Shown here piece after piece: positions 21,694-23,280 of a DNA stretch of 27,695 bases. Below the pieces are notes generated by a model. The model made no database searches. It saw only the letters and a program-made list of their open reading frames with translations, and was not told the origin of the DNA. The number at the start of each line of letters is the position of its first letter. The first letter of the stretch is position 1. Made by a program: the position numbers and the translations under genes. The DNA comes from a virus, in the IMG/VR virus record IMGVR_UViG_3300045988_163776, positions 128,001-155,695 of that record; one strand, written 5' to 3'.

Positions 21694-22225
21694 ATGGCTA
21701 AAATAAAGAAAATAAAAGATAATAATGGCACTACTATTTACCCTCTTACCTCGGTTGATGTAGTCTTTGACAAAAATGGTAAGACTTTGACCGGGGGGGG
21801 TGCTAAGTTTTATAGCTGGTCCTGATGATGACTTAAAGAATAATCCAACTATTAATTCTATCATAGCTTAGAACCTCACTACTAGTCTCTCCCCAAGAGG
21901 AGGTAGAGATTATGTAAGTGTTTTGTGCTTAGATAATAAATATATTCGTACTTGGTCGTTTTATAAGAAATCAGCAGCCTCGCCTGCGGAAAAAGGAGAC
22001 AAATATAATGCAAGACTCTCTGGAAGTGGAATTCTTGTATTTTGCATGACGGAATAGTCACCAAATCATATTGATGACGCCTATTTTTATCCATTTGAAT
22101 TATTAGGTACTAATTAGTATTTTAAATAGATAAACGGAATATCTTTTGATACTGAGAGCATTAATGGATTTGTAGACCCAATGGGAGATTGGGATGCTTA
22201 TTGGGTATTATTCAAAAAAGTATAA
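21694..22225 (+). CDS. receptor-binding/fibre cassette A; N-terminal MAKIKKIK module joined to the C-terminal domain only after a +1 frame change at a G8 tract; 4 in-frame TAGs downstream
   Basis: The start frame ends at TGA 21823. The +1 frame is open from the G8 tract (21793-21800) to TAA 22223, with TAGs at 21869, 22055, 22115 and 22127. Confidence 0.65.
21793..21800 (+). repeat. G8 homopolymer inside fibre cassette A
   Basis: The context GACC-GGGGGGGG-T stands out in a roughly 30% GC genome. The same context recurs at 22410-22417. Confidence 0.95.
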
Positions 22226-22278
22226 TTAAAGAGAATAAATTAATATAATATTTTATTCACTTAATTTATTCTCTTTAA
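22226..22278 (+). terminator. perfect 18-bp hairpin after fibre cassette A
   Basis: Stem ttaaagagaataaattaa/ttaatttattctctttaa with a 17-nt loop. Confidence 0.6.
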
Positions 22279-22307
22279 TATAAAAAAATAAAAGGAGAGA
22301 ATAAATT

Positions 22308-22752
22308 ATGGCACAAATTAAAAAATTAAAGCAAGGGGAGACAACGATTTTCCCAATGACAGATGCAAGTGCTGTACAATACGCAGGTAAAACTCTCTCG
22401 GATATGACCGGGGGGGGTCTATAGTACCCAACCCGTAAAAATTGGCACTTGGATTAATGGAAAGACAATATATAGAGAAATAAAAGAAATAGATTTTGCA
22501 TAGATAGATAAAACAGCGGACCATTTTTCATCAAATCTATCAGATTTTGGTATTTCTATAACAAAGACTGGAGGTTTACTTAATTTATATATTATAAGTT
22601 TTGCTTTTCCTTTAGATTCTGCAACTAATCAAGAAATTGGGTTTGTTTATACGCCAAATGAATTTTTAAAAGGTATAAAAGATGGGAATATAACAGAGTC
22701 ACTGTTTATTGAACCAATATATGCAATTATTACTTATGTTTCTTTAGACTAA
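22308..22752 (+). CDS. receptor-binding/fibre cassette B; MAQIKKLK module joined to the C-terminal domain (YSTQPVKIGTWINGKTIYREI...) only after a +1 frame change at a G8 tract
   Basis: AAAGGAGAG RBS. The start frame ends at TAA 22455. The +1 frame is open from the G8 tract (22410-22417) to TAA 22750, with one TAG at 22501. Confidence 0.7.
22410..22417 (+). repeat. G8 homopolymer inside fibre cassette B
   Basis: GACC-GGGGGGGG-T, at the position homologous to the tract in cassette A. Confidence 0.95.
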
Positions 22753-22779
22753 CTAAGAAGAATATTTTATTCTTCTTAG
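22753..22779 (+). terminator. perfect 11-bp hairpin after fibre cassette B
   Basis: Stem ctaagaagaat/attcttcttag with a 5-nt loop. Confidence 0.6.
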
Positions 22780-22812
22780 TAATTTAATTTTTAATAAGGA
22801 GAATAAGATATT

Positions 22813-23280
22813 ATGGCACAAATTAAAAAATTAAAAGACAATAATAATAATACAATATATCCAATGACACAAGCATCAGCAGTTTTTCTTAATAATGGAG
22901 AACAGCTTAGTGATTATTATTTAATTAAAGATATGGTTGCGTCTAATAAAGGCGTATCTGATTTATTCAATAATAGGATATATTTTAATGATGTTGGATC
23001 TCCAATAAAAGATCCAACTTTATATTTAATAAAAATAAAAGTAAATGGTCAACAACAGCTTACTTATTATGAAAATCCATTGAATGGCTATATTGCTTCT
23101 GATTTTGATAGTGACACTGGATTTTCAACTTCGCCATTAATGGTTACTAGTTTTACAGATGGGAAAATATACAAAACAACCAAAGAGTTTTCTTTTATCT
23201 ATGATAAAAGTGATAATTCTGCTGATCTAGAAACTGGGCAAAATGATTTAATAAGTAGTTTATAGTGGGACAGCATTTGA
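22813..23280 (+). CDS. receptor-binding/fibre cassette C (MAQIKKLKDNNNNTIYPMT...), no G tract; terminal TAG 23263 then 4 codons to TGA
   Basis: AAGGAG RBS. Intact 150-aa ORF. The N-terminus is paralogous to cassettes A and B. Confidence 0.75.

Follow-up and report, generated by a model that had tools for sequence, protein, structure and literature searches.

Tandem phage genes with a common adaptor as probable polyG phase-variable fiber tips in a TAG-recoded gut lineage

We analyzed a 27,695-bp stretch of viral DNA (positions 128,001 to 155,695 of IMG/VR record IMGVR_UViG_3300045988_163776; hereafter, the window) with a focus on three tandem genes, A, B, and C, at its positions 21694–23280. 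In our reading, the three genes probably encode alternative distal fiber tips of a gut phage of ∼120–125 kb whose late genes use TAG as a sense codon, with A and B being phase variable through runs of guanines (polyG). Each protein would consist of a ∼34-residue adaptor and a different head of ∼105–140 residues, joined in A and B by a Gly-Gly(-Gly) linker. That linker would be encoded by a run of 7–11 G, the length of which would be altered by slipped-strand mispairing during replication. Runs of G7, G10, and G13 would be ON and give the full-length protein, whereas other lengths would be OFF and give an adaptor-only peptide of 37–49 amino acids (aa), the switch being stochastic and reversible.

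Results

A Common Adaptor with Unrelated Heads

The genes lie on the plus strand at 21694–22225 (A), 22308–22752 (B), and 22813–23280 (C). A preliminary description of the window had reported three tandem genes with a common N terminus and different C-terminal parts, and all three were located at these positions. It had also called the N termini near-identical; their homology is clear, but identity over residues 1–34 is 48% between A and B, 58% between A and C, and 62% between B and C. The first eight residues are almost alike (MAKIKKIK or MAQIKKLK; start pattern MA(K/Q)IKK(I/L)K), the motif T(I/V)(Y/F)P(M/L)T..(A/V)..V is common to the adaptors, and genes B and C have the DNA sequence TTATGGCACAAATTAAAAAATTAAA in common.

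The adaptor is encoded at 21694..21792 in A (MAKIKKIKDNNGTTIYPLTSVDVVFDKNGKTLT) and at 22308..22409 in B, and the heads are encoded at 21801..22225 and 22418..22752, respectively, in both cases in the +1 frame relative to the ATG. The A head, of an allele that we call A1, contains four in-frame TAG codons, and with TAG read as Gln, the ON product of A would have 176 aa. The B head belongs to a family recognized by YSTQPVKIGTWINGKTIY ... ITYVSLD, and its ON product would have 147–148 aa. Gene C encodes 155 aa, with one TAG read as Gln, and comprises the adaptor and a third head domain. Pairwise comparison of the C-terminal parts of A, B, and C gave no significant similarity, in line with the earlier claim that these domains are unrelated.

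The TAG of gene C stands five codons ahead of TGA (...SSL-TAG-WDSI-TGA; 23264–23280), so that an unsuppressed TAG would shorten the protein by 5 residues only. The tail after this TAG varies between alleles, reading WDSI, WTTI, or EWTVMA.

G Tracts at the Adaptor–Head Junction

At the junction of adaptor and head, A and B each have a run of eight guanines on the plus strand (21793..21800 in A and 22410..22417 in B). Both tracts read GGGGGGGG within an identical 14-mer, TGACCGGGGGGGGT, and have the context TGACC-G8-T. The window holds no other G or C run of at least 6, and shuffling predicts 0.13 runs of G8. GGG is the rarest Gly codon in the window (8.8% of Gly codons), and GGG-GGG is used in none of the 22 other Gly-Gly pairs; the G runs are therefore not a by-product of glycine coding. 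With G8, the ATG frame of both genes stops soon past the tract, and the long open reading frame (ORF) goes on in the +1 frame. The window thus has both genes in the OFF state, in which A would give a 43-aa product (frame 0 stop at 21825) and B one of 38 aa (49 aa if TAG is read as Gln). In-frame lengths would be G7 or G10 for A (176 aa) and B (147 aa), and also G13 for A. Gene C has no G tract in the window or in any relative and is probably the constitutive member of the set.

Tract Length Varies Among Relatives

We compared the window with 16 related loci from independent metagenome samples, assembled in Logan, ENA, and IMG. With the window included, the A tract was G7 in two cases, G8 in five, G9 in two, G10 in three, and G11 in two; its in-frame lengths are 7, 10, and 13 and also 11 in contig L038, where ACC has changed to ACG. 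The B tract, with in-frame lengths of 7 and 10, was G8 in five cases (the window and L030–L033), G9 in four (L027–L029 and L038), and G10, which is ON, in two (L001 and L002). Both forms of ON allele, G7 (encoding TGG-V) and G10 (TGGG-V), were seen. The range of lengths (7–11 in A and 8–10 in B) and the presence of ON and OFF alleles among the relatives agree with the earlier statement that A and B are switchable through G tracts.

A frame-corrected search with B returned the full-length, in-frame proteins P0001 and P0002 (148 aa; 95% and 87% identical), and the corresponding search with A returned P0039–P0043, also full length and in frame (P0039 has 177 aa and is 95% identical). A search with an adaptor profile gave only peptides of 41–49 aa, including four OFF-state products of A or B. 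Past the tract, the downstream frame (140–177 codons) is uninterrupted in each of the 21 genes that bear a tract and lie entirely within their contig, and across alignments of 4.5–10 kb, tract indels are the sole net frame-changing indels within ORFs. The window (B at G8) and L027 (B at G9) differ in the tract despite 99.25% identity over the 1.6 kb just upstream. Two contigs, L003 and L033, break off at or just past the B tract, which would be expected of samples with mixed tract lengths. The divergent B allele of L033 keeps the tract with a different preceding codon, and the tract is absent from the more distant adaptor-sharing homologs P0003 and P0007. A scan of IMG/VR for the DNA pattern ACNTTGACCGGGGGGG returned 23 unrelated chance matches in high-GC contigs. 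The changes in length presumably arise by slippage during replication.

Programmed recoding, through a ribosomal frameshift or RNA-polymerase slippage, would produce a short peptide and a full-length protein at a fixed ratio, like the tail-assembly chaperone pair G/GT. The two window genes would indeed need an equal +1 shift from G8, the run contains a possible slippery heptamer (G GGG GGG), and in the G9 alleles of A, the stop lies one codon past the tract; long G runs can slip in transcription too. However, G8 would need a shift of +1, G9 one of −1, and G7 or G10 none at all, whereas a fixed frameshift signal would keep both length and frame. Nor do the tracts adjoin a conserved stimulatory structure downstream. 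We therefore consider programmed recoding unlikely, and because the frame relation is not conserved, ribosomal or transcriptional slippage is not the main device.

Could the lengths simply be homopolymer errors of sequencing or assembly, with every gene in frame and constitutively expressed? Runs of 8–11 bases are error prone, and the breaks of two contigs at the tract would fit such an origin. Against it stand the 16 assemblies from different projects and pipelines, with lengths of 7–11 that are up to 4 bases apart; the lack of any other homopolymer-associated frameshift in the flanking genes over the 4.5–10 kb aligned; and the unusual GGG-GGG coding, which is a signature of contingency loci. 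The comparative data, as far as assembled sequences go, look like a contingency locus, and we regard pure sequencing error as very unlikely.

Evidence for a Fiber-Tip or Receptor-Binding Role

The C-terminal part of B belongs to a domain family of ∼110 residues (YSTxExxIGTWIDGKPLYRK ... IEYTKTTD, including YSTQPVKIGTWINGKTIY). Among 1.84 billion cluster representatives, a single-sequence search identified 31 members at E ≤ 0.001, and the domain often occurs in 2–4 tandem copies. The motif had been described as widespread: it does mark a real domain family in metagenomes, but the family is nearly absent from 50,697 deposited phage genomes, in which tblastn with B, C, the adaptor, and two consensus-like B domains gave no match or matches at E ≥ 0.006. 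In protein P0021, a B-type domain is the C-terminal tip of a protein with a tail-fiber N terminus (phrog_19961; PF22337, Pfam Phage_fiber_rpt). Proteins with a pilin-like N terminus (P0005) carry the domain as well, so that its occurrence extends beyond phages.

Two tandem proteins of 521 and 606 aa, encoded in an unrelated metagenomic contig, L040, likewise begin with the adaptor motif; the second matches phrog_4217 ‘tail protein’. This suggests that the adaptor is a broader N-terminal anchor, used also by large tailspike-like proteins. In L040 (JAEIGA010030949.1, 828–4229), both proteins start MA(K/Q)IKK...(T/D)IYP(I/V)THEDAV. A scan of metagenomes with the adaptor profile found L040 alone, and a scan of 185,579 genomes found no relative and hence no host clue.

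A structural model of B, of medium quality (predicted local distance difference test [pLDDT] 64), matched a viral protein in BFVD at E = 2e-6 and then, weakly, collagen-repeat and tail-fiber proteins; nothing significant was found for it in the PDB. Sequence searches of the PDB with A, C, the B-family profile, and the L040 proteins gave no match, and the sole PHROG match in A, B, and C was phrog_6907, with function unassigned (E = 0.07, in the adaptor of B). The cassettes follow the genes of an 810-aa protein and a collagen-like protein and precede that of a C1-peptidase–SLH protein. They carry in-frame TAG codons, as other late genes do, and encode sequences without transmembrane segments or signal sequences. 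From gene context, late TAG recoding, P0021, the weak structural matches, and the L040 tail protein, we infer a role as virion receptor-binding proteins (RBPs): A, B, and C would be distal fiber-tip or receptor-binding proteins with a common attachment module.

Alternatively, A, B, and C might be other late proteins with a common N-terminal tag, such as decoration, whisker, assembly, or lysis accessory proteins. Our searches turned up no family, structure, or annotated phage homolog for the three; the C1-peptidase–SLH protein, a radical SAM maturase, and an NlpC/P60-like protein encoded downstream point to lysis or cell-wall functions; and the B-type domain is found on the pilin-like N terminus of P0005. 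The absence of transmembrane and signal sequences speaks against this alternative, as do the position of the B domain at the end of the tail-fiber protein P0021 and of the adaptor motif at the head of the large L040 tail proteins. Head swaps, dN/dS (ratio of nonsynonymous to synonymous substitution rates) near or >1 in close pairs, and phase variation are, moreover, typical of host-surface contact. We give the alternative little credence.

Head Swaps and Cassette Gain and Loss

Gene A exists with two unrelated head alleles that are exchanged exactly between the tract and hairpin 1, a hairpin that follows the gene. Allele A1 is carried by the window, L002, L027, L028, L030, L034, and L035, and allele A2 is carried by L001, L029, and L036–L039. 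Conservation between A1 and A2 genomes extends a few bases beyond the tract and resumes at the first base of hairpin 1; the sequence between is unalignable. The conserved block of hairpin and Shine–Dalgarno (SD) sequence is the 3′ homology arm of these head swaps.

Whole cassettes also come and go. Besides A+B+C, we found the sets A+C (L034–L037 and L039) and B+C (L031). In A+C genomes, C is preceded by the A–B intergenic region and the first codons of B, and in the B+C genome, the intergenic region and the ATGGC of gene A stand ahead of B. The junctions of gain and loss thus fall inside the common 5′ coding sequence ATGGC...AAATTAAA, which points to homologous recombination between adaptor sequences. 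Gene C has two allelic types, at a dS of about 0.5. The proposal of a modular set of interchangeable proteins is upheld by the A1/A2 swap at a defined junction and by the presence or absence of whole cassettes among relatives.

Two other routes to variation were considered and rejected. An invertible segment does not fit, as there is no recombinase among the neighboring genes and all relatives are collinear; the only flanking inverted repeat (35 nt at 71%) is explained by two similar intergenic hairpins. A diversity-generating retroelement was dismissed, as the window has no long template/variable repeat pair.

The heads have dN/dS of 0.4–0.6 at deeper divergence and >1 between some close pairs, a combination common in domains that contact receptors. 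The A1 heads of the window (21801–22225) and L030 differ by 20 nonsynonymous and 2 synonymous changes, and several close pairs have dN/dS of ∼2.6–4.7. Such values in A1 would reflect diversifying selection or else constraint that is relaxed in the OFF state. In a further alternative, A and B are decaying pseudogenes of duplicated fiber genes, the G runs are inactivating hot spots, and C alone is functional. Although A and B are both out of frame in the window and both OFF in five of eight three-cassette genomes, and although dN/dS exceeds 1 in some close pairs, we consider this extremely unlikely, given in-frame alleles in nine independent contigs, the absence of further disrupting mutations from the 21 complete genes at dS values of up to 0.7, the preservation of frame by every other coding indel, the persistence of the tract in the divergent L033 allele, and the use of an otherwise avoided codon in the tract. 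The coexistence of ON and OFF alleles with intact downstream frames argues against both pseudogenes and a fixed ribosomal frameshift and in favor of phase variation at the DNA level.

Intergenic Hairpins and Possible RNA Coupling

Genes A and B are each followed by a hairpin on the plus strand, given in the preliminary description as perfect, with stems of 18 and 11 bp. Both stems are perfect, but they measure 19 and 13 bp. Hairpin 1 (22225–22243/22261–22279) has a 17-nt loop and a folding energy of −17.9 kcal/mol (z = −5.8); hairpin 2 (22752–22764/22768–22780) has a 3-nt loop and −14.3 kcal/mol (z = −2.8). The 5′ arm of each begins at the final base of the upstream gene’s stop codon. Folding revealed no comparable hairpin after gene C (z = −0.07), and Rfam, run on the window, reported tRNAs only and nothing at the hairpins. 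As classical terminators, both candidates were rejected: hairpin 1 is followed by an A-rich stretch, and hairpin 2 is AT rich and followed by a T-rich stretch. Among the nearly invariant intergenic regions, the hairpins vary by one G-U–compatible, one pair-improving, and one disrupting change.

The 5′ arms resemble the SD region of the next gene (AAAGAGAATAAATTA vs. GGAGAGAATAAATTA and CTAAGAAGAATA vs. ATAAGGAGAATA), so that the pyrimidine-rich 3′ arm has two possible partners, the 5′ arm and the true SD with its start codon. The SD and start codon of B (AAAGGAGAGAATAAATTATG; 22290..22310, plus strand) are complementary to the 3′ arm of hairpin 1, with 22262–22274 able to form 13 perfect bp with 22296–22308. 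Those of C (22795..22815, plus strand) can pair with 22761–22778 as an alternative to hairpin 2, in a helix of 18 bp that includes 2 G-U pairs (−20.3 kcal/mol, z = −5.1). When the sequence up to 13 nt past the stop codon was kept single stranded to mimic a terminating ribosome, both regions folded into the SD-sequestering helix. In the B–C region, this helix is also the unconstrained minimum (−20.3 to −20.9 vs. −14.3 kcal/mol).

These alternative folds raise the possibility that the cassettes form a hierarchical, self-excluding tip selector in which tracts and RNA switches together pick one head, with A over B over C. With the upstream gene ON, ribosomes arriving at its stop codon would melt the hairpin of SD mimic and anti-SD, and the freed anti-SD would sequester the next SD. 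With the upstream gene OFF, ribosomes would stop ∼330–400 nt earlier, the hairpin would persist, and the next gene would be translated; the adaptor-only peptides of the OFF state might then cap unused docking sites. We hold this selector to be doubtful. The SD mimic could also be a scar of tandem duplication.

In L031, L032, L036, L037, and L039, the intergenic region that separates the collagen-like gene from the first cassette contains a small hairpin, AAGAGAATAA-N-TTATTCTCTT. Its motif is that of the hairpin 1 arms and therefore recurs at all cassette borders.

TAG Recoding and Neighboring Genes

The window, with 31% GC, resembles part of a phage genome in which TAG is a sense codon in late genes. 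ORFs of at least 100 codons sum to 0.75 of the window length under the standard reading and to 1.00 once TAG is taken as sense, and in-frame TAG codons cluster from ∼15 kb onward. TAG takes the place of the oxyanion-hole Gln in a papain-like peptidase (VVD#G#SETC, with # for TAG) and occurs in the collagen repeat GP#GEKG, beside a normally encoded GPQGEKG; from these positions in the C1-peptidase and collagen motifs, TAG would be read as Gln. A suppressor tRNA with anticodon CTA, detected by ARAGORN and Rfam at 16887–16974 on the plus strand, would be required for the in-frame TAG codons of A, B, C, and other late genes. TAG at Gln-requiring positions and a phage tRNA(CUA) are thus both found, as late-gene recoding of TAG to Gln demands. 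Stop-codon recoding in phages has been tied to late and lytic genes (PMC10879173, PMC11210395).

At 87–88 nt, the tRNA-CTA resembles class II tRNAs (Leu/Ser/Tyr) in its long variable arm; ARAGORN assigns it to Pyl, although the protein context gives Gln. A dense tRNA array occupies 7300–16980; ARAGORN counts 16 tRNAs in it and Rfam counts 19. The array includes a tRNA called with a 4-base anticodon (11037–11109), one of undetermined type (13082–13156), and extra weak Rfam matches at 7309, 10296, 13182, 13283, and 14589. A 320-aa Cys-rich protein with repeated CxCxCG motifs, encoded at 15039–16001, has the densest in-frame TAG codons in the window, 10 in all.

Two late proteins of 124 and 231 aa, encoded at 17301–18389, end alike (EDFINSLFS and EEYINSLFT), and this ending may be another attachment motif of the fiber apparatus; the 231-aa protein is Ala rich and coiled-coil–like and has weak tail-fiber matches in PHROG. 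The gene of the 810-aa protein (18449–20881) stands upstream of the collagen-like gene and the cassettes. The collagen-like fiber protein (20938..21540, plus strand; 200 aa, three in-frame TAG codons; Pfam Collagen at 5e-10) comprises an N-terminal domain, ∼21 G-X-Y triplets, and, after the triple helix, a final 17 residues with no C-terminal head. Many PHROG tail-fiber families match it through the collagen repeats. This headless protein is a plausible stalk or docking partner for the cassettes.

The gene directly downstream of the cassettes (23312–24241), which contains five in-frame TAG codons, encodes a fusion of a papain-like C1 peptidase and an SLH domain. The enzyme probably acts in lysis or targets the cell wall, and it hints at a host with an SLH-binding cell wall of the Clostridia or Negativicutes type. 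In the region 24415–25759, a 35-aa ORF without Cys (24415–24522) overlaps the start of a radical SAM/SPASM enzyme whose nearest relatives are PapB-type ranthipeptide and other peptide maturases, all matches being under curated cutoffs. The pair is kept in all relatives just after the C1-peptidase–SLH gene and may be a phage-encoded modified-peptide system. At 26356–27525, a 389-aa protein without a Pfam, PHROG, or NCBIfam match contains the motif FDCSGYVG, which we take to resemble the NlpC/P60 catalytic site.

Related metagenomic contigs reach 120–125 kb, and one is labeled human gut. A blastn search of 7.9 kb against deposited phages matched collagen repeats alone.

Discussion

We propose that the adaptor would plug all three proteins into one virion site, perhaps on the collagen-like protein. 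The linker would tolerate the loss or gain of a residue. C, having no tract, would always be made beside two optional heads, and a phage population would consist of particles with mixed tip repertoires, a form of bet hedging where host surfaces vary. Homology arms for the exchange of heads and for the gain and loss of cassettes would be provided by the adaptor coding sequence, the tract, and the hairpin/SD block.

Several points weigh against this proposal. For the putative virion location and receptor binding, sequence searches of Pfam, PHROG, and the PDB with A, B, and C gave nothing useful. Structure prediction, suggested earlier as a check, yielded the model of B at pLDDT 64, but the adaptor was modeled at low confidence only (pLDDT 46–54). 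The exact G8/G8 state of the window rests on its assembly, in which homopolymer calls can err by one. As the relatives were found through short OFF or full-length ON products, the tract counts are biased and are not ON/OFF frequencies. Finally, transcriptional or ribosomal slippage on G8–G11 may add leaky expression, which is indistinguishable here from slippage of the DNA.

If A and B are phase-variable tips, the principle is a known one, as polyG phase-variable RBPs have been documented experimentally, though in only one phage genus, that of the Campylobacter phages. What would be new is their occurrence in an uncultured, recoded gut lineage, as tandem mini-RBP cassettes with one adaptor and a tract at the adaptor–head junction, together with natural ON and OFF alleles, head swaps, cassette gain and loss, and a possible RNA coupling of cassettes. 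Host-range heterogeneity in gut phage populations may be common yet missed, when split ORFs are annotated as peptides of 37–49 aa. The locus, unusually compact in its design, offers a testable system for how a phage coordinates alternative tips, and its junction and homology arms amount to a natural blueprint for engineering exchangeable receptor-binding heads.

The closest parallel is Fletchervirus. Two of its up to four RBPs are phase variable via tracts of 7–11 G (Sorensen et al. 2021, Cell Rep 35:109214, as described in PMC8713573, PMC10579305, PMC11959909, bioRxiv 10.1101/2025.10.21.683753), and a 2025 review terms this Campylobacter phage case ‘exceptional’ (PMC11959909). Both systems have tracts of 7–11 G in the coding sequence of some RBP-type genes, two of three here and two of up to four there, and in both, tract length gives ON and OFF alleles, with a mixed phage population there and a proposed one here. 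In contrast, the phage described here is unrelated, has ∼31% GC, is TAG recoded, comes from the human gut, and is known from its sequence alone. Its genes are tandem, very small paralogs with one adaptor, and the tract lies exactly at the adaptor–head junction, where it encodes the Gly linker. Further differences are the variation in cassette number and head alleles and the conserved triads of hairpin and SD that separate the cassettes.

The RBPs of lactococcal siphophages (BppL of TP901-1 and Tuc2009, which sits on BppU, and ORF18 of the 936 group) have a conserved N terminus that plugs into the baseplate and an exchangeable head that sets host range. There is one per genome, with no known homopolymer switch, and BppL begins MASIKK..., which is reminiscent of the adaptor of A, B, and C. 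A, B, and C resemble these proteins (∼160–260 aa) in small size, conserved N terminus, unrelated C termini, and the exchange of heads between relatives. Sequence and structure searches of the PDB gave no similarity in sequence or fold between A, B, or C and BppL or ORF18, and the tandem set and the homopolymer switch have no known counterpart in the lactococcal phages.

Tail-fiber DNA is invertible in Mu and P1, through the Gin/G and Cin/C segments (Chow & Bukhari 1976, as cited in PMC10579305). As proposed here, a constant N-terminal part is there combined with alternative C-terminal parts by a stochastic, reversible change in DNA, with mixed host ranges as the result. The change in Mu and P1 is a site-specific recombinase inversion between inverted repeats that leaves a strict either/or choice. 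Here, changes in a G run would shift the reading frame, and every cassette has a copy of the N terminus to itself.

Branched multi-RBP systems, such as TSP1–4 of CBA120, gp63.1/gp66 of G7C, and the anchor–branch depolymerases of Klebsiella phages, likewise have adjacent RBP genes whose products attach through conserved N-terminal anchor modules. Unlike A, B, and C, their proteins are large tailspikes that are all displayed together via distinct adaptor domains and are not known to be phase variable. The 521- and 606-aa proteins of L040 may be closer to this type.

Homopolymer contingency loci with reversible frameshifts have been described as bet hedging in T-even and other phages (Gomez, Barrick & Waters, bioRxiv 10.1101/2025.10.21.683753). 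These repeats are mostly short (at least 6) and of A/T type and lie in defense-evasion and other genes; in the tail-fiber genes of coliphages, they are reported as underrepresented (bioRxiv 10.1101/2025.10.21.683753). The tracts of A and B differ from them in being long G runs that are placed specifically in genes for putative fiber tips.

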